Below are positions 18,596-24,689 of a stretch of DNA of 64,000 bases, piece after piece (position 1 is the stretch's first letter; each line of letters begins with the position of its first letter). Where the stretch lies: the NCBI GenBank assembly GCA_963728005.1, contig CAVSIG010000005.1, forward strand, positions 57,716 to 121,715. The letters run 5' to 3'. The DNA is from an uncultured Microthrixaceae bacterium. GTDB taxonomy: Bacteria > Actinomycetota > Acidimicrobiia > Acidimicrobiales > DATDAH01. The position numbers and the translations under genes are program-made. The notes beneath the pieces are model-generated. The model was not told the DNA's origin. It worked only from the letters and a program-made list of their open reading frames with translations, and searched no databases.

Positions 18596-19072
18596 TCAGC
18601 TGAGCTCGAGCTCCCGGTCCGGCGTCCGGGCGAAGTGGCTGACCGGAACCGCACCGGTGTCGTCGCGGTGGACGATCACGTAGCCGGAGCGCAGGTAGAG
18701 GCTGATCGCCGGCGTGTTGCCGGTCGAGGTCATGACCTCGATGCGCCGGGCGTCGGCCTCCCGGTCGTGCAGAGCACGCAGGAGCGAGGCGCCGATGCCC
18801 CGCCGGAAGTGGTCCGGGTGGACGGCCAAGCGGTCCACGTCGACCAGGTCGCCGTGACGCAGGTAGCCGAGCACGCCCACCAGCGTCTCGTCGACGCTGG
18901 CGCCCAGCATCACGCCGTCGAGGGCGGCCACGTCGTCGGCGTCCTGCGTCAGGCCGGGCATGCCGTCGTAGCCGGTGAGCTGGGCCTCGACCCGGTAGCC
19001 GGCTTGCTGTACCTCGACGATCCGCTCGGCCACCGGCTGGGCGCGGTGGTCGAGGACCACGATGTCGATCAC
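18596..19072 (-). CDS. GNAT family N-acetyltransferase
   Basis: RLAVHPDHFRRGIG and NTPAISLYLRSGY; GTG start overlapping the upstream stop. Confidence 0.85.
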   Translation of the reverse strand: MIDIVVLDHRAQPVAERIVEVQQAGYRVEAQLTGYDGMPGLTQDADDVAALDGVMLGASVDETLVGVLGYLRHGDLVDVDRLAVHPDHFRRGIGASLLRALHDREADARRIEVMTSTGNTPAISLYLRSGYVIVHRDDTGAVPVSHFARTPDRELELS

Positions 19073-19878
19073 TCGGTGAGCCACCTCGCCGTCTCGATGT
19101 GTGTCGGGATCGCCCCGTCGTCGTCGAACGCCCACGCCATGGTGTGGGCGAACGCCCAGCCCCGGACCCGCTCCCGATCGAGCCCGAGCTCGTCGCTGCA
19201 CCGGTCCAGCCGGTGGCGTACCTGCTCGCGGCTGTGGCCCAGCTCCTTCGAGCGGATGACCGGCGTCGGGGCGAAGGCCATCTCGCCCACCAGCGGCTTC
19301 GGGTCGATCGTCAGCCATGGCTCCCGCTCCGCGGCCAGGACGTTGTCCCCGTGCAGGTCCTGGTTGACGAGGACGGCCGGGCCCTGGCTCGGCCCCAGCT
19401 CCTCCAGCACCCCGACCGCGCGGTCGACCAGCTCGCGTTCGAACGGTCGGCCAGCGGTCTCCCACATACGGGGGAGTGTGCCTGCCCAACGCGGGGCTTC
19501 ATCAGCCAGCCGCGCGAACGGCTCGCCGGCCGGCACCGAGAGCCTTTGCACGATCTGCATGATTGCAGTCAGTGCCACATCCGGCGGGGACGCTGCCAGC
19601 GGGGTGCCCGGCACGCACCGCTCCAGGAGCAGCGCGTGACGCTCCCGATCGTGGTCCAGGAGCCGGACCGCACCGTTCCCGTCCCACACCCGGAGCGCGT
19701 CCGCCTCGTGCTCTGCCTCGCGGTGCGGGAACTGCACCTTCAGCACGACAGGCATCCCGTCCGCCTGGGTCGCCGGCGCCACCCACCCCCCGACGCCGCC
19801 CTCGTACGGCGAGCCGAGCTCGAGACCCCAGCGCTGCGCGCACTCGTCCACGAGCTTCGGCAGCCCGGGCCATTCCAC
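19069..19878 (-). CDS. Aminoglycoside/hydroxyurea resistance kinase family (APH(6)-like), N-terminus possibly truncated
   Basis: VVLK, EADALRVWDGNGAVRLL, LLLER, NQDLHGDNVL, WLTIDPKP. Confidence 0.8.
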   Translation of the reverse strand: MEWPGLPKLVDECAQRWGLELGSPYEGGVGGWVAPATQADGMPVVLKVQFPHREAEHEADALRVWDGNGAVRLLDHDRERHALLLERCVPGTPLAASPPDVALTAIMQIVQRLSVPAGEPFARLADEAPRWAGTLPRMWETAGRPFERELVDRAVGVLEELGPSQGPAVLVNQDLHGDNVLAAEREPWLTIDPKPLVGEMAFAPTPVIRSKELGHSREQVRHRLDRCSDELGLDRERVRGWAFAHTMAWAFDDDGAIPTHIETARWLTE

Positions 19879-19942
19879 ACACCGTGGCTAGCAGCCGCCT
19901 TCGCGCCCCCTCAACGGGATTCGCCCGGTGGCGCTCGGTGAG

Positions 19943-20191
19943 CTACTCGTCGTCGTCGCTCTGGCGGGCGGACTTTCTCCGCTCGAGTCGCCAGTGGATC
20001 TCGTGGGTGGTCGGGTGCCGCCACTCGCGCATGCGGTACTCGAACCCCGGCAACAGCACGATCGGGATCGGATCGGGGGACGCCGGGGCGACCGCTCCGA
20101 CCACGATCTTCGCGTCCGTGGGGATGAACGGGGACTGCGCGGGGACGGGTCCGGTGATGATCTCGACCGGGTCTCCATAGGGGCGCGGCAT
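19943..20191 (-). CDS. Small hypothetical protein (82 aa)
   Basis: ATG at 20191 preceded by a -10-like TAGCTT (leaderless spacing); protein-like composition MPRPYGDPVEIITGP...EYRMREWRHP..EIHWRLERRK. Confidence 0.5.
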   Translation of the reverse strand: MPRPYGDPVEIITGPVPAQSPFIPTDAKIVVGAVAPASPDPIPIVLLPGFEYRMREWRHPTTHEIHWRLERRKSARQSDDDE

Positions 20192-20240
20192 GAAGCTCGA
20201 AGCTAGCAGGCGGGATCCAGTGGGCGCTGATAGAGATCCG

Positions 20241-20269
20241 TTGGATTCCAAATAGAAATCCGATAGAGT
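20241..20269 (+). promoter_or_regulatory. SigmaA-like promoter embedded in an 11-bp repeat array
   Basis: TTGGAT-N17-TAGAGT, with no convincing ORF downstream until 20499. Confidence 0.55.
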
Positions 20270-20276
20270 TCCCAGC

Positions 20277-20456
20277 AGAATTGGTTCTCCGGGACTCCGG
20301 CCCGATCAGCCTTCGGCGGATCCACACGGCCATGTCCCTCTTTCGGCGGGAACCGACAGCAGCACGTCCCGCTTCGGCGGGGCGCGCAAGCGGCCAACGG
20401 CGGATGGGGCTCCCCTCCCATCCGCCCTTGGCCCGTGCTGATCCGGCGAAGAAAAA
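20277..20456 (+). ncRNA. Candidate structured non-coding RNA of unknown family
   Basis: Nested stems: CAGCACG/CGTGCTG (20360-66/20434-40), TCCCGC-TTCG-GCGGGG, GC-GCAA-GC, GGCCAA.GGCGGATGGG/CCCATCCGCC.TTGGCC, GATC.GCC-TTC-GGC.GATC and TGTC/GACA; upstream promoter. Confidence 0.55.
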
Positions 20457-20460
20457 GGGC

Positions 20461-20498
20461 TTGACCATGACGCGGGGTCAACCCTGCACCCTGGGGTC
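20461..20498 (+). promoter_or_regulatory. MerR-type promoter/operator for the ABC-2 exporter operon
   Basis: TTGACC -35 forms an inverted repeat with GGTCAA. A long 20-bp spacer leads to CACCCT, with ATG 6 nt later. A MerR gene lies in the same operon. Confidence 0.65.
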
Positions 20499-21275
20499 AT
20501 GACCAACCATCCCGCCATCGCCGCCAGGGGGCTGCGCAAGTCCTACGGCGACCACCTCGTGCTGGACGGCATCGACCTCGAGGTCCCCGTTGGCACCATC
20601 TTCAGCCTCCTCGGGCCCAACGGCGCCGGGAAGACGACCGTCGTGCAGATCCTCTCGACGCTGCTCCGGGCCGATGCCGGTGAGGTGCGCGTCCTCGGCC
20701 ACGACCTCGCGACCGAACCCGACGCGGTCCGCGCCGGGATCGGCGTGACCGGCCAGTTCGCCGCGGTGGACGGGCTGCTCACGGGCCGGGAGAACCTGCG
20801 CCTGATGGCCCGCCTCCACCACCTCGACCGCACGGTCGGCGGGCAGCGGCTGGAGGAGCTCCTCGAGCGGTTCGACCTCTTCGACGCGGCCGACACGCCG
20901 GCGGCGACCTTCTCCGGCGGCATGCGCCGGCGGCTGGACATCGCCATGACGCTCATGGGCTCTCCGCGCCTGCTCTTCCTCGACGAGCCCACCACCGGCC
21001 TCGATCCCCGGAGCCGGCGCGACGTCTGGCTGATCGTCCGGGACCTGGTCGCGGACGGCACCACGGTCTTCCTCACCACCCAGTACCTGGAGGAGGCCGA
21101 TCAGCTCGCCGACCGCGTTGCGCTGCTCGACGAAGGTCGCATCGTGGCCGAGGGCTCGCCCGACGAGCTCAAGCGCTCCGTCCCCGGGAGCGTGGACCTG
21201 GACGACGTCTTCCTCGCCCTCACCGGGCGTTCGCGGGACGACGTGTCCGAACCCGAACTGGAGGTGATCCGATGA
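20499..21275 (+). CDS. ABC transporter ATP-binding protein, DrrA-like
   Basis: GPNGAGKT, FSGGMRRRLDIA, LFLDEPTTGLD, LTTQYLEEAD. Confidence 0.93.
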   Translation: MTNHPAIAARGLRKSYGDHLVLDGIDLEVPVGTIFSLLGPNGAGKTTVVQILSTLLRADAGEVRVLGHDLATEPDAVRAGIGVTGQFAAVDGLLTGRENLRLMARLHHLDRTVGGQRLEELLERFDLFDAADTPAATFSGGMRRRLDIAMTLMGSPRLLFLDEPTTGLDPRSRRDVWLIVRDLVADGTTVFLTTQYLEEADQLADRVALLDEGRIVAEGSPDELKRSVPGSVDLDDVFLALTGRSRDDVSEPELEVIR

Positions 21276-22063
21276 CCGCACTGTCCCTTGCCGTTACCGA
21301 CTCGACCACGATGCTCCAGCGGCGGTTGCTCCACCTCCGCCGCTACCCGTCCCTCACGATCATGCTCATCGGGCAACCGCTCGTGCTCCTCCTGCTGTTC
21401 GTCTACGTCTTCGGCGGCACGTTGGGCGCCGGGATCGAGGGAGCCGGGGCCGGCCGGGCCGAGTACCTGGCCTACATCACGCCGGCGATCCTGGTGATGG
21501 CGGTCGCCAGTGTCGCCCTCGGCACCGCGATCGCCGTCGCCACCGACATGACCGAGGGCATCGTCGCCCGCTTCCGGACGATGGACATCGCCCCGGTCTC
21601 GGTCCTTGCCGGCCACGTGTTGGGCGCCCTCGCCCAGACCGCGCTCGCCCTCGTCGTGACCGGGGGCGTGGCCGTCCTCCTCGGCTTCGACCCCGGCGGC
21701 GACGCTTTCGACCTCCTGGGCGCCGCCGGGGTCCTCATTGCCCTCGGCTTCGCCCTGACCTGGTTGACGGTGGCGATGGGGCTCGCCAGCGGGAGCGTCG
21801 AGACGGCCAGCAACATCCCGATGGTGCTCGTCCTCCTGCCGTTCCTCGGCAGCGGGTTCGTCCCGACGGAGTCCATGCCGACCGGCCTGCGCTGGTTCGC
21901 CGAGCACCAGCCGTTCACCCCCGTCATCGAGTCGGTGCGGGCACTCCTCGCCGGGGAGCCGGCCGGCGGCGACCTGTGGTTCGGGCTGGCGTGGTGTGCG
22001 GTGCTCGCCGCCATCGGCTACTTCTGGTCGAAGCGCCTGTACGACCGAGAGCCGACCGCATGA
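21272..22063 (+). CDS. ABC-2 type permease (DrrB-like)
   Basis: DMTEGIVARFRTM, GSGFVPTESMP, AEHQPFT; several TM segments. Confidence 0.92.
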   Translation: MTALSLAVTDSTTMLQRRLLHLRRYPSLTIMLIGQPLVLLLLFVYVFGGTLGAGIEGAGAGRAEYLAYITPAILVMAVASVALGTAIAVATDMTEGIVARFRTMDIAPVSVLAGHVLGALAQTALALVVTGGVAVLLGFDPGGDAFDLLGAAGVLIALGFALTWLTVAMGLASGSVETASNIPMVLVLLPFLGSGFVPTESMPTGLRWFAEHQPFTPVIESVRALLAGEPAGGDLWFGLAWCAVLAAIGYFWSKRLYDREPTA

Positions 22064-22866
22064 GTTCACCCGACACCAGCGGCCCCGCCCTCCTGACGAT
22101 CAGCGAGCTCGCCCGCTTCGTCGGGGTGACGGTCCGGGCCGTCCGCCACTACCACGCCCGCGGGTTGCTGCCCGAGCCGGAACGGGACGGCTCGGGCTAC
22201 CGGCGGTACGACGCCCAGGCCGTCGTCGACCTGATCCGCATCAAGATCCTGGCCGAAGCCGGCGTCCCACTGGCCCGGGTCGGCGAGCTGCTCGAGGCCG
22301 ATCCGGTGGCGTTCGCGGACGCCGTCGACGACATCGACTGCTCGCTGGCGGATGAGATCGACCGCCTGCAGGAACACCGCAAGCGCATCGCCGAGCTCGC
22401 GGCCGGCGACAGCCTGGCGTTGCCGCCGGTGGGGCTCGCCTTGCTGGCTCGCCTCCGCGAGATCGGGGTCTCCGAGCGAGCGATCACGATGGAGCGCGAC
22501 GGCTGGATCATGGTGGTGGCGGCCCACTCGCCCGACGACGTCTTCGAATGGATCACCCAGAAGCTGGCCGAGTTCGAGGACGAAGAGTTCCGCGAGGTGT
22601 ACCGAGCCTTCGACGAGGCCTTCGACTGGGATCCGGATGACCCCCGCCTCGAGCAGCTCGCCGACACCCTCGTCGCCTTCATGCGTCGCCGGGCCGAGGA
22701 GGACGCCGCGTCCCTGGCTGACGAGGAGGCGTTCGACCAGCACCTCGTGGCCCTCATCGACGCCCAGACGACCACGGCGTCACCGGCGTGGAGCCGCCTG
22801 ACCACACTGTTGGAGCGACGAGGTTGGTCGGGCTGGTCGAGGCTCGACCCGCCCGAGGACACCTGA
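22060..22866 (+). CDS. MerR family transcriptional regulator
   Basis: LTISELARFVGVTVRAVRHYHARGLL...GYRRY; ATGA overlap. Confidence 0.92.
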   Translation: MSSPDTSGPALLTISELARFVGVTVRAVRHYHARGLLPEPERDGSGYRRYDAQAVVDLIRIKILAEAGVPLARVGELLEADPVAFADAVDDIDCSLADEIDRLQEHRKRIAELAAGDSLALPPVGLALLARLREIGVSERAITMERDGWIMVVAAHSPDDVFEWITQKLAEFEDEEFREVYRAFDEAFDWDPDDPRLEQLADTLVAFMRRRAEEDAASLADEEAFDQHLVALIDAQTTTASPAWSRLTTLLERRGWSGWSRLDPPEDT

Positions 22867-22868
22867 GG

Positions 22869-23489
22869 TCAGCGGTCGGTCATGTCTCCCGTCTCGGGTG
22901 TGCCATCGGCGAGCCCATAGCGCAGGAACACGACGCCCGTCGGACTGGCGATCGGCGGTTCGAGGAGCGTGACGTTCGTGGGCACCGCGCCACCGTCGAA
23001 CACCGTTTTCCCGACGCCGAGCACGATCGGGTGCACCCAGAGATCGAGACGGTCGAAGAGCTTCTCGCGCAGCAGGGTCTGCACCAGGTTCAGGCTCCCG
23101 ACGACCTTCACGTGCTCGTGCCGGTCGCGGATCTCCCGCACGGCACCGGCCAGATCCGAGCCGAGCTGGGTGGACCCGGCCCACGAGAGCTCGGGCCTGC
23201 CGCGGGAGGCCACGTACTTCGGGACGCTGTTGAAGAGCGTGGCGATCTCGTTGTCCTCGCCCCCCTCCTGGTGCGGCCAGTAGGCGGCGAAGATGTCATA
23301 CGTCCGCCGGCCGAGCAGGAGGGCGTCCGTGCCCTCGTACGCGGCACCGACCTGCGCCCCGGCGACCTCGTCCAGCAGGGGCGCCTGCCAGCCGCCGAAC
23401 GGGAACCCCACCGGGTCCTCGTCGGGGCCGCCGGGCGCCTGCCCGACGAGGTCGAGGGTTGCGAACATCTCGATGTGGATGAGGCCCAT
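22869..23489 (-). CDS. Dihydrofolate reductase family protein (RibD C-terminal-like)
   Basis: FATLDLVGQAPGG, LLLGRRTYDIF, PKYVAS, VVGS, HPIVLGVGK. Confidence 0.9.
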   Translation of the reverse strand: MGLIHIEMFATLDLVGQAPGGPDEDPVGFPFGGWQAPLLDEVAGAQVGAAYEGTDALLLGRRTYDIFAAYWPHQEGGEDNEIATLFNSVPKYVASRGRPELSWAGSTQLGSDLAGAVREIRDRHEHVKVVGSLNLVQTLLREKLFDRLDLWVHPIVLGVGKTVFDGGAVPTNVTLLEPPIASPTGVVFLRYGLADGTPETGDMTDR

Positions 23490-23526
23490 GCCTTGCTCCA
23501 ATGAGTCGGTTGTCTCGGTCGAGAGG

Positions 23527-23555
23527 TAGACCCGTGGGCGCCGGCAGACTCATCG
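23527..23555 (-). promoter_or_regulatory. ECF sigma (SigG/ECF56-like) promoter upstream of the DHFR-like gene
   Basis: Minus strand reads CGATGA-N18-GTCTA, resembling the mycobacterial SigG consensus CGATGA-N18-GTC. Confidence 0.55.
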
Positions 23556-24689
23556 CTGCTCGGGAGGCGCTTCACCGTCAGGGCTGAGGTTGCCCGGGTC
23601 GCCCGAGGCGAGCCGTGGCGCGTAGTGGTCGAAGAACACCCGGGCGACGAGCTCGCCGCGCGTCCGCACGCCGACCTTGTCGAAGATGGACTTCAGGTGG
23701 TCCTGCACCGTGTAGGCGGACAGGTGGAGCTGGTCGGCGATCTCCGTCGTGGACAAGCCACGGGCGACGAGCTCGGTCACGGCCCGCTCCCGCGACGTGA
23801 GGTCGTACGCCTCGGCGATCATCGGCGCGAGGTGGTGGGCGTGAGCCGGCTCGAGGATCACGGCGGCCCGCGAGTCGGGACCGTCGCCGATGACCGATCC
23901 GCGGGCCAGCAGCCAACGCCCGGATGCCGTCCGGATGCGCGCCGTTGCCGCCGGCCCGCTCGAGCGACCGGTGGCGGCGGTCCGTGCCCGGTGGGCCACC
24001 GCCGCGATCAGGGTCGGTGGTTCGTCGTCAGGTCGACCGCCGTTCGTCAGCTCGGCCAGCCATCGGCGTGCGCCGGCATCAGCCATCTCGATCGAGCCGT
24101 CGGGAGCCAACAGGACCACGCCCGGAACGGTGTCGTCGGTCTCGTCGACCTTGGTTGGCGGATCCGTGAGCAGGACTGCGCGCACGAGTCCCTCCACGAG
24201 ATCCGGCCCCAGAGACGCGAGGAGGGCCGCGTCTCGGGGTTCGAAGGGCGGCCGCCCCGCCTCCCGTAGCAGGGTGATGCCGCCCCACGTCTCGGAACCG
24301 CTCACCAGCGCGGCGCGCAGCTCATCGCCGAACCCGGCGGGCCGCTTGAGCTCGCGATGCCGCAGGCTTCGATCGAGCGCGCCGTCCGTCGCTTCGCTGA
24401 GGCTCGCGGCCGGCCGTGGCGCTCGCGCCAGGTCGGTGAACTTGTTGAAGTCCGGCTCCCCGATCTCGATTTCCGCCATCCGCGGCACCGTCGCGGGCGG
24501 GAGGCCGTTCTCGACGATCTCCCCGGTCGGCAGGAGCGTGGCCGGGTCGAAGAGCAGCAGGCAGACGCCGTCGAAGGGCACCAGGCGGCCGACGAGATGA
24601 GCGGCCGCGAGCGCGTAGTCGCCGACGACCAGCCCTCGGTGGCCGAGCCCGAGGATGTCACTGCGCAGACGGTCCGGTGAGATGACCAT
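23550..24689 (-). CDS. LuxR-type HTH transcriptional regulator with GAF-like N-terminus
   Basis: C-terminal LTSRERAV...GLST.EIA.QLHLSAYTVQDHLKSIFDKVG; N-terminal DPATLLPT, GFGDELR; GAGGAG RBS upstream. Confidence 0.88.
   Translation of the reverse strand: MVISPDRLRSDILGLGHRGLVVGDYALAAAHLVGRLVPFDGVCLLLFDPATLLPTGEIVENGLPPATVPRMAEIEIGEPDFNKFTDLARAPRPAASLSEATDGALDRSLRHRELKRPAGFGDELRAALVSGSETWGGITLLREAGRPPFEPRDAALLASLGPDLVEGLVRAVLLTDPPTKVDETDDTVPGVVLLAPDGSIEMADAGARRWLAELTNGGRPDDEPPTLIAAVAHRARTAATGRSSGPAATARIRTASGRWLLARGSVIGDGPDSRAAVILEPAHAHHLAPMIAEAYDLTSRERAVTELVARGLSTTEIADQLHLSAYTVQDHLKSIFDKVGVRTRGELVARVFFDHYAPRLASGDPGNLSPDGEAPPEQR

Follow-up and report, generated by a model that had tools for sequence, protein, structure and literature searches.

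A candidate structured small RNA with conserved promoter boxes, divergent from an 82-residue ORF in Microthrixaceae

Closest described systems

The 6C RNA (RF01066; 6C/B11 in M. tuberculosis) consists of two hairpins, each with a C-rich loop, and is described as conserved among high-GC Gram-positives. The element reported here, at about 20,276-20,443 on the + strand of the window (the whole 64,000-nt stretch of DNA that was analysed), resembles it as an actinobacterial, GC-rich hairpin RNA with a putative promoter of its own and a C-rich loop predicted to be exposed, but it carries one C-rich apical loop rather than two, adds a three-way junction and extra hairpins over a length of about 170 nt, and is narrowly distributed (3 of 18 genomes of the family, and none of the 150 other genomes of the order searched with R1, a covariance model of the RNA). 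In a published account, the C-rich loops of 6C bind their mRNA targets directly and without a chaperone (PMC6486639). The candidate also differs from 6C in its lack of any Rfam match: at the gathering score the whole window returned three tRNAs only, and 20,150-20,520 gave five chance-level rows even at E ≤ 10, with 6C not among them. An earlier sequence-only reading of this DNA, which recognised the element as neither 6C, Ms1, raiA, C4 nor a ribozyme, was right in this respect.

The CcsR sRNAs lie in the 3' UTR of a protein gene and are co-transcribed with it, unlike the candidate, which is divergent from its protein-coding neighbour, an 82-residue ORF referred to here as ORF82, and appears to have its own promoter. 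The small DUF1127 protein CcaF1 of Rhodobacter, as one source describes it in connection with the CcsR or 'cuckoo' sRNAs, binds RNA and affects sRNA maturation (PMC8034643). The likeness, a small protein gene tied to a structured sRNA with C-rich, anti-Shine-Dalgarno-like loops, makes this pair a working analogy as far as that source describes it; at the same time, ORF82 has no DUF1127 or other Pfam domain, the RNA has no Rfam CcsR match, and the phylum is a different one.

Three-way-junction riboswitch aptamers and other 5' leaders share with the candidate an upstream promoter, covarying stems, invariant junction-flanking bases and, in three loci, a co-oriented gene; the family of the downstream gene is inconstant, however, a conserved expression platform is missing, and in two copies the neighbour is convergent. 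Type III (ToxI-like) toxin-antitoxin systems are likewise compact cassettes of protein and RNA with a repeated short motif, here TTCGGCGG, but the candidate is divergent rather than upstream and co-transcribed, its repeats are not tandem and only two of the three are conserved, ORF82 is widespread without the RNA, and PADLOC gives no match. A search of the full-text literature found no description of the RNA or of ORF82. Overall, the explanation we tentatively favour, with a probability of roughly 45%, is that this + strand segment is the gene of an unnamed structured sRNA of about 170 nt, which would be transcribed from its own promoter, act in trans via its C-rich loop and be linked with ORF82.

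Fold, strand and promoter of the candidate RNA

Five related copies of the RNA were found, three in two Microthrixaceae MAGs of the same genus and two on soil metagenome contigs. Exact-pattern scans with TTCGGCGGGAACCGNCAGCA were followed by nhmmer to sort out true homologues. In the GTDB genome contigs, 3 of 28 stretches were true (E ≤ 1e-33), all in two genomes of this genus, and the remaining 25 matched little beyond the pattern (best E 9.6e-5); the JGI metagenomes gave 39 stretches, among them one full homologue (L059, 1.2e-25) and one cut by a contig end (L066, 6.1e-6), the other 37 being pattern-only; and IMG/VR gave one stretch and no homologue. Spurious ORFs over the RNA, used as a further route to homologues, produced no candidate in the + frame and, in the minus frame, two matches to unrelated long repetitive proteins. 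The R1 model found no member in the ORF82-carrying genomes G004, G588 and G758, and a partial match in G387 (28.6 bits) proved to be a look-alike of the P3 hairpin only. The homologous block is exactly window 19,931-20,443, that is, the RNA and the divergent ORF82, and the flanks are unrelated in every locus. Identity is 74% over the full 244-nt stretch and 85-87% in the 3' domain, which is also found alone at two further places. Common to the copies is a core of P1, the mini-hairpin UCGG[CGGGAA]CCGA, and a three-way junction with one UNCG-capped arm and one 18-bp arm ending in CUCCCC.

The near-complete folding claimed for 20,277-20,456 does exceed dinucleotide-shuffled controls: the minimum free energy is -93.8 kcal/mol against -76.3 ± 4.5 in 200 shuffles, none of which was as good (z -3.94). 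The four promoter-bearing homologues reach z -4.1 to -8.4 on the + strand, and the copy at G006:C8:105552 folds at -5.4; G009:C5, which has no promoter, gives z -1.75 and is a decaying copy. The minus strand of the window segment has a z of -3.15, and across window and homologues the minus-strand values run from -3.15 to -5.9, so that both strands fold well and folding energy is uninformative about the strand. The + strand is supported by other features, namely a cUUCGg or cUACGg loop in 5/5 sequences, eight G-U cells against four A-C cells (leaving out the UCCC/GGGA helix, which is weak and is not returned by RNAalifold), and -35 and -10 boxes that face this strand. The same features bear on a reading to which we give almost no credence, in which the fold would be a long structured 5' leader of ORF82, on the minus strand, with a promoter right of 20,445. 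ORF82 and the folded region do form one conserved block, and the two strands fold equally well; yet read on the minus strand the loops become CGAA and CGUA, and a U-G pair kept in 3/5 sequences becomes a C-A mismatch. Moreover, nothing is conserved right of 20,443, and hence no conserved promoter lies there, a conserved TANNNT box stands 8 nt before the ORF82 ATG, and two copies of the folded domain occur without ORF82. The RNA region itself is non-coding: substitutions among five homologues fall evenly over the codon phases (21/16/19, no periodicity) and indels of 1, 2, 4 and 5 nt are not multiples of three, which bears out the statement that it holds no convincing ORF.

The predicted RNA (20,276-20,443, + strand) is about 168 nt long: its 5' end would lie 6-8 nt past the -10 box, and the 3' end was set where conservation stops. 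No intrinsic terminator was found, with zero terminator-like sites in 19,850-20,600 and no U run 3' of the closing helix in any homologue; since actinobacterial terminators often lack U tails, this is weak evidence. All elements of the fold lie on the + strand. A small 5' hairpin, P0 (CCGG-GACU-CCGG, 20,289-20,300), varies in sequence, with equivalents in G009_C11 (GCCC...GGGC), L059 (GCGG...CCGC) and L066 (CCGC...GCGG) and none in G006_C8. In P1 (GAUCAGC/GCGGAUC, 20,304-20,322, from RNAalifold), columns 9/19 of the alignment pair as C-G in 3/6 sequences and as G-C in 2/6, with G-G in 1/6. The C-to-G change of L059 and L066 is compensated in this local hairpin and uncompensated in a rival structure, where the 5' strand of P1 pairs with GCUGAUC at the 3' end; that long-range pairing, although it is the minimum-energy structure in the window, was dropped for its lack of compensation in L059. 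The most conserved stretch is UUCGGCGGGAACCGACAGCA (20,342-20,361), invariant in 6/6 sequences bar one A/C position. Covariation is no test of the mini-hairpin returned there by RNAalifold (20,343-20,356), because its sequence never varies.

Individual elements of the sequence-only reading, CAGCACG (20,360-20,366) with CGTGCTG (20,434-20,440), a C(UUCG)G hairpin, GCGCAAGC, the 20,392-20,433 arm and the spaced promoter hexamers at 20,241-20,269, are where it put them. The four-way junction that it built from them gives way in the homologues to a three-way junction, closed by CAGCA/UGCUG three bases 5' of the proposed register (20,357-20,361/20,436-20,440); this conserved 5-bp helix is paired at 5/5 positions in 5/5 sequences, with no variation. 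The GC(GCAA)GC mini-hairpin exists in the window but is not conserved, its GCAA becoming GCAG, GGAG or GCAU, and a proposed TGTC/GACA hairpin likewise has no conserved counterpart. The sequences of the suggested outer stem, TTCT.CCGGG/TCCGG..AGAA, are indeed present but extend beyond the conserved block ending at 20,443, and the stem is specific to the window.

Of the two arms of the junction, P2 (20,362-20,387) has 11 pairs and a cap at 20,373-20,376 that is UUCG in 4/5 and UACG in 1/5 sequences; 89% of its cells are paired, and both partners have changed in three pairs (G-C to U-A, G-C to U-G, C-G to G-U). P3 (20,392-20,433), which the repeat search also flagged as an inverted repeat (I12), has 18 pairs below the apical loop CUCCCC (20,410-20,415), with 95.5% of cells paired and both-side changes in two pairs (C-G/G-C at 20,394/20,431, and G-C to A-U); its C-C mismatch at 20,398/20,427 is found in the window copy alone. 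CUCCCC is the one C-rich apical loop, the remaining loops being UUCG, CGGGAA and the variable loop of P1, and the CCUCC within CUCCCCUCCC, in P3, is complementary to the Shine-Dalgarno sequence GGAGG. Another C-rich stretch, UCCCCC, precedes the mini-hairpin on its 5' side but is outside any supported loop.

Without a given structure, RNAalifold recovers P1, the mini-hairpin, the closing helix, P2 and P3. In the proposed structure, 90.5% of 241 cells are paired against 86.8 ± 0.9 in shuffles, a level reached by 0 of 500, and six pairs have changes in both partners, where shuffles average 2.4 ± 1.1 (1 of 500 as high) and slid controls give 0-3; the set is one of six closely related sequences (five full, one of these decaying), and kinship of this kind can outscore shuffles even without structure. 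With that proviso, the alignment shows a conserved secondary structure with compensatory changes. The triplicate TTCGGCGG that it had noticed does occur at 20,312, 20,342 and 20,373. The two conserved copies are parts of different helices and not tandem units. Matches to the motif number 16 in the window, where shuffled sequences average 4.7 ± 1.9.

Upstream lies a candidate promoter (20,241-20,269, + strand) composed of a -35 box TTGGAT (20,241-20,246), a 17-nt spacer and a -10 box TAGAGT (20,264-20,269), with ATAG boxes at about 20,231, 20,253 and 20,265 in the same region. The GTTGG and ATAGA.T columns are invariant in five aligned loci, at a spacing of 17-18 nt, while the surrounding sequence drifts, and the boxes are also present in L066 and G004_C44. 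The window has a single GTTGGA-N16-19-ATAGA, as does the whole 4.96-Mb genome, and 100 shuffles of the window have none. An E. coli-type scan did not call this promoter, because TTGGAT fits just 3/6 positions of TTGACA. We read TTGGAT, the 17-nt spacer and TAGAGT as a phylogenetic footprint, in all probability the RNA's own promoter; together with the copy at G006:C8:105552, which stands without ORF82, the invariant boxes sustain the view of an independent, promoter-driven + strand element. Between the two divergent promoters is a conserved box, GATCCAGTG (20,214-20,222), present in the window, G009_C11, both G006 loci (A and B) and two metatranscriptome loose ends, found as CCAGTG in G004 and absent from L059 and L066. 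On the minus strand, a -10-like box TAGCTT (20,200-20,205) stands 8 nt upstream of the ORF82 ATG and is kept as TA(N)CTT or TAGCCT in all ORF82 loci read; we take it to be the ORF82 promoter box on the model of actinobacterial TANNNT -10 boxes. The window sequence has no Shine-Dalgarno motif before this ATG, and the ORF82 mRNA is probably leaderless.

By sampled-word content no sequencing run reached half, the best being DNA run X1 at 0.40, with the RNA runs at or below 0.11. X1 yielded one 336-nt contig over 20,066-20,401 with nine differences. Three metatranscriptome runs gave contigs over relatives of ORF82 and none over 20,194-20,445; contigs from relatives cannot show starts, ends or absence, and these runs are silent on whether the RNA is transcribed.

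ORF82 and its linkage with the RNA

ORF82 (19,943-20,191, minus strand; 82 aa, MPRPYGDPVEI...RRKSARQSDDDE in translation) forms the left edge of the conserved block. Its relatives number 592 of 594 candidate proteins (clusters) at E ≤ 1e-3, in two actinobacterial classes, and the best 120 of the 592 are 80-93% identical; they also occur in soil and rhizosphere metatranscriptome assemblies. Differences among its copies are concentrated in third codon positions (2/2/12 for the window and G009, for example), the signature of a gene under strong purifying selection. The family search returned no Pfam (one chance row at E ≤ 1), NCBIfam, PHROG, PADLOC or PDB sequence-profile match, and tblastn none in 72,556 plasmids, 50,697 phages or IMG/VR. 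The AlphaFold2 model, of moderate confidence (pLDDT 70), has four strands and predicts a small all-beta protein, in which RRK forms a basic stretch and the tail is acidic. The model resembles no RNA-binding fold (Foldseek against PDB, best E 2.5; VIA-align wide, best Z 2.8), and the ESM Atlas holds only an unnamed 82-aa cluster, at 0.80. Apparently longer relatives were start-codon extensions, frameshifts or junction chimeras, with no true fused architecture; the apparent ORF82-integrase fusion at G004:C63 (ORF82 residues 46-76) is a rearrangement and not domain homology, because, set against the G006 integrase, its integrase part lacks the arm-binding domain and most of the core-binding domain. 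Two possible base pairings between the RNA and ORF82 were also rejected: that of GGGGCGCG, in the 3' strand of P2, with ORF82 codons 2-4 is lost in L059, where P2 has changed and the ORF has not, and that of CAGCAGCACG with the VLLPG codons involves variable and synonymous positions.

The suggested partnership with the 82-aa ORF holds up as co-occurrence. ORF82 is divergently adjacent at 4/6 RNA loci and is found in 4/18 genomes of the family, with all three RNA genomes among them. In G006 the two are 680 kb apart, and the RNA there keeps its promoter and fold, hence its behaviour as an independent gene; this copy (G006:C8:105552, locus B) retains promoter, P1 and 3' domain, has no ORF82, and is followed 70 nt downstream by a convergent gene. 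In all, two copies of the folded domain stand without ORF82. Conversely, carriers of ORF82 outside the genus (G588, G758 and G387) lack the RNA, and ORF82 therefore does not need it.

These observations bear directly on the idea that the RNA is chiefly a protein-binding one with ORF82 as its partner, whether as a small RNP, an RNA decoy or an antitoxin-like antagonist that titrates ORF82, the two travelling as a 0.5-kb two-gene cassette. We think this improbable. It would fit the exact coincidence of the conserved block with ORF82 plus RNA between unrelated flanks, the genome-level co-occurrence in 3/3 RNA genomes even at a distance in G006, and the predicted all-beta, basic-stretch, acidic-tailed protein of no known family; the invariant hexaloop CGGGAA and other invariant unpaired bases would likewise suggest a binding site for protein rather than a seed for base pairing, and CcaF1 with CcsR, a small protein on C-rich-loop sRNAs, offers a precedent as far as its source describes it (PMC8034643). 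Yet ORF82 is far commoner than the RNA (592 protein clusters against six RNA copies, with three carriers outside the genus), and toxin-antitoxin dependence is therefore unlikely; the protein model, only moderate at pLDDT 70, is also unlike any RNA-binding fold.

Genomic setting and proposed role

A co-oriented gene begins 22-56 nt past the RNA in 3/3 complete ORF82-linked copies, so read-through is possible and the RNA might be a cis-acting 5' leader. On this account the promoter divergent from ORF82 would drive cargo genes, with the RNA as their 5' UTR, serving as a stabiliser, a sensor of ligand or protein, or a source of 5'-UTR-derived sRNA. We regard it as a possible but rather unlikely alternative. 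The short distance to the co-oriented genes, the failure to find a terminator after the RNA, and an aptamer-like shape, with a three-way junction and an invariant flanking segment, all agree with it, and where ORF82 occurs without the full RNA, a like divergent promoter leads into a protein-coding gene, which specifies a 227-aa secreted-looking protein in G387 and, in G006 locus A, where homology breaks just past P1, a DrrA-like ABC-2 exporter. The downstream genes, however, belong to unrelated families: the window has an ABC-2 ATPase, G009:C11 a 108-aa signal-peptide protein and an SNase-domain protein, and L059 a 195-aa signal-peptide protein. Two of the five full copies are followed by a convergent gene, for a CHRD-domain protein in one and for a 137-aa membrane protein in the other. 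Locus B of G006 keeps promoter and fold with no cis target. Since nothing past the closing helix is conserved, the element has neither a conserved expression platform nor conserved pairing to downstream ribosome-binding sites. Finally, the ABC genes of the window come with their own palindrome, TTGACC-N9-GGTCAA, and their operon includes a MerR gene.

The sequence-only reading had also placed the element at an islet boundary, and this is borne out: G004 and G007, two genomes of the same genus, lack the greater part of window ~19.77-26.43 kb at the syntenic place, only 22,877-23,559 recurring there, inverted, and the conserved block is the left edge of this ~6.7-kb segment. Its further suggestion of a phage or ICE remnant finds no backing. 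Genes in window 13-28 kb encode SnoaL, F420H2 quinone reductase, TetR, Zn peptidase, GNAT, APH(6)-like kinase, ABC-2 exporter, MerR, RibD_C, LuxR, BBE oxidase and cyclase proteins, with no integrase, relaxase or phage gene among them; no convincing direct or inverted repeats bound the islet (19.6-26.6 kb); and ORF82 is unmatched in plasmids, phages and IMG/VR. Nothing speaks for the single-strand origin offered as an alternative. More broadly, it is highly improbable that the palindromes (P1 GATCAGC..GCTGATC and the long inverted repeat of P3) act at the DNA level in a mobile islet, whether as an operator, a recombination site or a single-strand origin. Such a role would suit a position at the edge of a segment mostly missing from relatives, a 3' domain that occurs alone at two other places, the homology break just after P1 in G006 locus A, the equally good minus-strand energy, and the integrases near ORF82 in G006 (a tyrosine integrase, 1.6 kb away) and G004 (truncated, adjacent). 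It sits poorly with G-U pairs and UNCG loops, asymmetries for which a duplex site has no need, and with a conserved promoter that reads into the RNA region, and the window offers neither integrase nor relaxase at 13-28 kb, no flanking repeats, and no ORF82 match in viral contigs.

On the reading we favour, TTGGAT-17-TAGAGT is a sigma-A-type promoter from which the RNA would be transcribed, away from the divergent and probably leaderless ORF82. The RNA would fold into P1 on its 5' side, a mini-hairpin that never varies and has GGA in its hexaloop, and a three-way junction whose arms are one UNCG-capped and one long, with a C-rich, anti-Shine-Dalgarno-like apical loop. Two segments, CUCCCC and UUUCGGCGGG, may be exposed. 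Most likely it would act in trans as a regulatory RNA, pairing through the exposed C-rich loop, and possibly through the invariant UUUCGGCGGGAACCG, with G-rich ribosome-binding regions of mRNAs, as actinobacterial 6C does with its targets. ORF82 would belong to the same pathway, either controlling the shared promoter region or binding the RNA. A bolder extension, which has a small chance of being correct, is that ORF82 and the RNA constitute a new two-part RNA-protein cassette, a 0.5-kb unit at the edges of variable islets that sets the expression of adjoining exporter and secreted-enzyme genes. In that case ORF82, as a new family of small all-beta proteins, extremely conserved and common in metatranscriptome assemblies from soil, would bind the invariant GGA hexaloop and the junction, and also the ATAG and GATCCA promoter boxes, and the RNA would be a lineage-specific regulatory partner of ORF82, as decoy or co-factor.

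To our knowledge, almost no regulatory RNAs have been described in Acidimicrobiia, including the Microthrixaceae of soil and wastewater. Given its narrow distribution and unproven function, we regard the present candidate as a solid lead that will not greatly surprise the field. If transcribed, it would define a new family of structured RNAs whose architecture is clear, with a UNCG arm and a C-rich, anti-Shine-Dalgarno-like loop on a three-way junction, and which has a natural genetic partner. Indeed, ORF82 may be the larger prize, a highly conserved protein that matches neither a family nor a fold and has no function assigned to it, and the RNA would then provide a handle on its role.

Extent and distribution of the conserved unit

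The window comes from a metagenome-assembled genome of the Microthrixaceae (Acidimicrobiia), and every sequence feature named in the sequence-only reading is present where that reading placed it. ORF82, the divergent 82-aa gene (19943-20191, minus strand, by translation), is separated by a gap of 307 nt from an ABC-2 exporter operon of ATPase (20499-21275), permease (21272-22063) and, at its end, a MerR-family gene (21976-22866). The folded element in this gap matches no Rfam 15 family: at the gathering level the whole window gives three tRNAs and nothing else, and a permissive scan of 20150-20520 returned five rows, all at chance level. The defining tests for 6C RNA, type III antitoxin RNAs, cuckoo RNAs and riboswitch leaders also came out negative. 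It is credible that the window RNA represents a new structured-RNA family outside all Rfam families, and it would class as a bacterial small RNA of narrow host range.

Among 41 related genomes, real BLAST matches are confined to two of the same genus, G009 (contig C11, 74% identity over 244 nt; contig C5, 85% over the 3' 108 nt) and G006 (contig C8, 87% over the 3' 102 nt), and the element is present in three of 18 family genomes. Further scans used an exact pattern taken from the best-conserved part of the element, with candidates then tested by nhmmer. The GTDB species set gave 28 stretches, of which those confirmed are the three G009 and G006 loci already known; JGI metagenomes gave 39, leading to one full homologue (L059) and one cut by a contig end (L066), both from one soil data set; and IMG/VR gave a single, non-homologous stretch. 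Searching 150 further genomes of the order with a covariance model of the six sequences added no member, and a 336-nt contig in one DNA run covers 20066-20401 with nine differences. The BLAST, pattern and covariance-model outcomes therefore describe a family that is real but narrow, with nhmmer placing relatives, as the sequence-only reading had suggested looking for, in two same-genus genomes and two soil metagenome contigs.

When 14-26 kb of the window was compared by BLAST with all of these loci, homology was limited to 19931/19942-20443, and no flanking synteny with G006 or G009 was found. Thus the conserved unit is about 510 bp of ORF82, intergenic promoter region and folded stretch, bounded by the ORF82 stop codon on one side and a point just past the RNA closing helix on the other, and the proposed link to the 82-aa ORF holds. 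In two other genomes of the genus, G004 and G007, synteny with the window runs up to ~19763 and resumes at ~26435; the DNA in between, which carries ORF82, the RNA, the ABC-2 exporter, MerR, LuxR-type and BBE-oxidase genes, is missing from G004:C75 and G007:C2, except for the RibD_C gene (22877-23559), which is inverted there. The module therefore lies at the left margin of a variable islet of ~6.7 kb, in keeping with the islet boundary first proposed. The further suggestion of a phage or ICE remnant is not supported, as window 13-28 kb has no integrase, phage or conjugation gene; no terminal repeats bounding the islet were found.

Several features of the surroundings may be recorded here. Homology with G004 and G007 stops within an APH(6)-like kinase gene (19069-19878, minus strand), about 115 nt from its 5' end. 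A 17-nt hairpin-forming string seen by eye, GGCTAGCAGCCGCCTTC, lies at 19887-19903, ~40 nt past the ORF82 stop, and also 3' of the degenerate RNA at the G006 ORF82 locus (L106 ~1955-1975); either a small repeat or chance may account for it. Within 20461-20501, the palindrome TTGACC-N9-GGTCAA stands directly 5' of the codon at which the ABC ATPase starts (20499), where a clear Shine-Dalgarno sequence was not seen. Palindrome and MerR-family gene would fit the MerR-type promoter suggested in the sequence-only reading, from which the operon mRNA is possibly leaderless. The window's own assembly comprises 4.96 Mb in five contigs with a marker completeness of just 56.7%, and the other RNA-bearing genomes, G006 (66%) and G009 (88%), likewise combine few contigs with low completeness; the marker set may be ill-suited to this genus.

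Fold, coding potential and strand

The 180 nt at 20277-20456 have a minimum free energy of -93.8 kcal/mol versus -76.3 +/- 4.5 in dinucleotide shuffles (z -3.94; 0/200 equally stable), so the fold passes the shuffle control proposed for it; the reverse strand gives z -3.15. From a MAFFT alignment alone, with no structure supplied, RNAalifold returned five plus-strand helices: P1 (GAUCAGC/GCUGAUC, 20304-20322), a mini-hairpin UCGG[CGGGAA]CCGA (20343-56), a 5-bp closing helix CAGCA/UGCUG (20357-61/20436-40), P2 with a UUCG cap, UACG in the G009 C11 copy (20362-87), and P3 with the apical loop CUCCCC (20392-20433). Pairs were counted on a structure that we named ourselves, in which a weak 4-bp UCCC/GGGA helix takes the place of the RNAalifold mini-hairpin. 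Standard pairs occupy 90.5% of 241 cells versus 86.8 +/- 0.9 in shuffles (reached by 0/500) and six pairs changed on both sides versus 2.4 +/- 1.1 (reached by 1/500), in a sample of six closely related sequences (five full length), whose relatedness can inflate such statistics. As a control, sliding the partners by 1-3 columns left 31-52% of cells paired and 0-3 both-side changes; RNAalifold's own structure has five.

The covariation check that the sequence-only reading called for thus gives, in these six sequences, compensatory changes in P1 (C-G to G-C in L059 and L066), P2 (G-C to U-A in L059 and to U-G in G009 C5) and P3 (window C-G versus G-C in the other four; G-C to A-U in G009 C5). The closing helix and mini-hairpin are invariant in all sequences and hence lie outside the test. 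Other details of that reading need revision. The junction is multi-branched, as described, but the conserved one is three-way rather than four-way; the closing helix stands, but its 7-bp register is window-specific, three bases downstream of the conserved one; and the P3 arm is retained, with a C-C mismatch found in the window alone. Its GNRA mini-hairpin, TGTC/GACA pairing and outer TTCT.CCGGG/TCCGG..AGAA stem are not conserved among homologues.

The earlier view that the region holds no convincing ORF is upheld: variable core columns fall 21/16/19 by codon phase, with no codon periodicity, and core indels are of 1, 2, 4 and 5 nt. ORF82, by contrast, shows 2/2/12 differences by codon position between window and G009, with 11 synonymous versus 2 non-synonymous codons. 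Folding energy does not tell the strands apart, and two alternatives could draw on this. A site acting at the DNA level is improbable, and a minus-strand leader of ORF82 is more improbable still. The sole conserved promoter faces the plus strand. The plus strand as RNA, as originally favoured, agrees with that direction, with a P2 loop of cUUCGg or cUACGg in 5/5 sequences, and with eight G-U versus four A-C cells (weak UCCC/GGGA helix left out); one U-G pair is held in 3/5 sequences, the remaining ones having C-G and U-A.

Promoters and stand-alone copies

Invariant intergenic columns in a five-locus alignment include GTTGG (20240-44) and ATAGA.T (20263-69), so that the promoter proposed from the sequence, -35 TTGGAT, a 17-nt spacer and -10 TAGAGT (20241-69, plus strand), is present, conserved and reads into the fold. 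The same layout recurs in L066 and at the contig end of G004:C44. GTTGGA-N16-19-ATAGA occurs once in the window, compared with 0 times in 100 shuffles, and once in the 4.96-Mb genome. A promoter scan, with an E. coli consensus for an actinobacterial host, did not call TTGGAT/TAGAGT, which we take to fit the actinobacterial TTGNNN/TANNNT promoter. Further footprints are three ATAG boxes and one GATCCAGTG box; G387, a distant carrier, has TTAG for the boxes at its ORF82 locus, in a similar layout. On the minus strand TA(N)CTT is kept 8 nt 5' of the ATG of ORF82, which no Shine-Dalgarno sequence precedes, and we therefore infer a leaderless ORF82 mRNA.

The G006 ORF82 locus (C8:787921) keeps the promoter, the small 5' hairpin P0 (20289-20300) and P1, diverges after CACACGG, and has a 3' part reduced to a short ACCGCCAGCA remnant. 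At C8:105552, 680 kb away, a second copy has promoter, P1 and complete 3' domain (folding z -5.4), with no ORF82 or remnant found there (tblastn best E 1.7), and 70 nt past the RNA lies the end of a convergent gene. Promoter and fold thus persist without ORF82, as an independent element should. The only promoter-less copy, on G009:C5, is flanked by the 3' ends of sulfotransferase and CHRD-domain genes, has built up mismatches and folds with z -1.75. An intact stand-alone copy and a decayed promoter-less one match what would be expected of a transcribed, trans-acting gene that decays once untranscribed.

ORF82 and the proposed mode of action

ORF82 belongs to a far wider family, with 592 of 594 candidates at E <= 1e-3 and a span of Acidimicrobiia and Actinomycetes; the best 120 of the 592 clusters are 80-93% identical, one being from a Terrabacter isolate. 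Its distribution is nevertheless patchy: carriers number 2/401 sampled genomes for the phylum, 5/401 for the order and 4/18 for the family, own genome included and two order matches being partial or frameshifted. ORF82 has no match in Pfam, NCBIfam, PHROG, PADLOC or PDB sequences and is absent from plasmid, phage and IMG/VR collections; its AlphaFold2 model (pLDDT 70, four beta strands) has no significant structural neighbour. Two metatranscriptome assemblies, rhizosphere and soil, contain 51 and 15 contigs of relatives over ORF82, a presence that does not in itself prove transcription. Outside the genus, carriers lack the RNA, which is therefore a lineage-specific companion of ORF82 and not required by it.

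Other observations concern ORF82 itself. It is broken repeatedly at its LLPGFEY codons, possibly a hot spot of recombination or insertion. A 1.2-kb insert separates residues 3-50 from 46-76 in G004:C63 (L100 5740-5883, 7071-7940), where the second piece continues in frame into a tyrosine integrase without N-terminal domains. In the metagenome protein P0149, residues 1-52 are joined at this spot to a C-terminal DUF2252 part. Integrases also lie 1.6 kb downstream in G006 and in the scrambled region of G004:C63. The short-read G004 assembly has two full copies at contig ends (C63:1-254; C44:11422-11741), C63 beginning 8 nt 5' of the ATG and C44 ending within the RNA promoter -10 box; the ORF82-promoter region acts there like an assembly-breaking repeat. 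The divergent side holds a DrrA-like ABC-2 exporter (ATPase and permease) in two loci of unrelated DNA (L107 8434-10865, G006; window 20499-22063) and proteins with signal-peptide-like N-termini, by eye, in three others, a possible link with export or secretion genes. In G387 a hairpin CAGCAGCCCGUCCCGCU..GGCGGGGCGGGCUGCUG (L091 2546-2631), after the secreted-protein gene adjoining ORF82, resembles the closing helix and P2 (23.6 bits), and another, 243 kb off (L105 1501-1628), has AACGGCGGAUG/CAUCCGCCGUU in common with P3 (28.6 bits). The two hairpins are perhaps remotely related to the RNA arms, or else products of chance in GC-rich DNA.

Overall, the folded stretch is noncoding, conserved and compensated, read into by a conserved promoter, linked to ORF82 and persistent without it. 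We put at roughly 45% the reading that it is a ~170-nt trans-acting RNA with ORF82 in the same pathway. Transcription would yield the RNA, and its best handle for target pairing would be the apical loop CUCCCC, which is invariant and lies in CUCCCCUCCC; that string includes CCUCC, complementary to the Shine-Dalgarno GGAGG. The 6C RNA of M. tuberculosis is described as binding mRNAs directly at C-rich loops, independently of a chaperone (PMC6486639). The main rival, unlikely yet the most serious, is that the RNA is a 5' leader of cargo genes: no terminator was found, a co-oriented gene follows 22-56 nt after the RNA in three complete ORF82-linked copies, and the divergent promoter of ORF82 drives protein genes at RNA-less loci; the stand-alone G006 copy meets a convergent gene. 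The two are compatible, as an sRNA derived from a 5' UTR would satisfy both. In the trans-acting reading ORF82 would target either the promoter region that both genes share or the RNA itself. That the RNA instead binds or antagonizes ORF82 is doubtful, though their linkage in one unit would suit it. Much of the interest of the finding lies in this partnership with an unexplained and extremely conserved ORF82.
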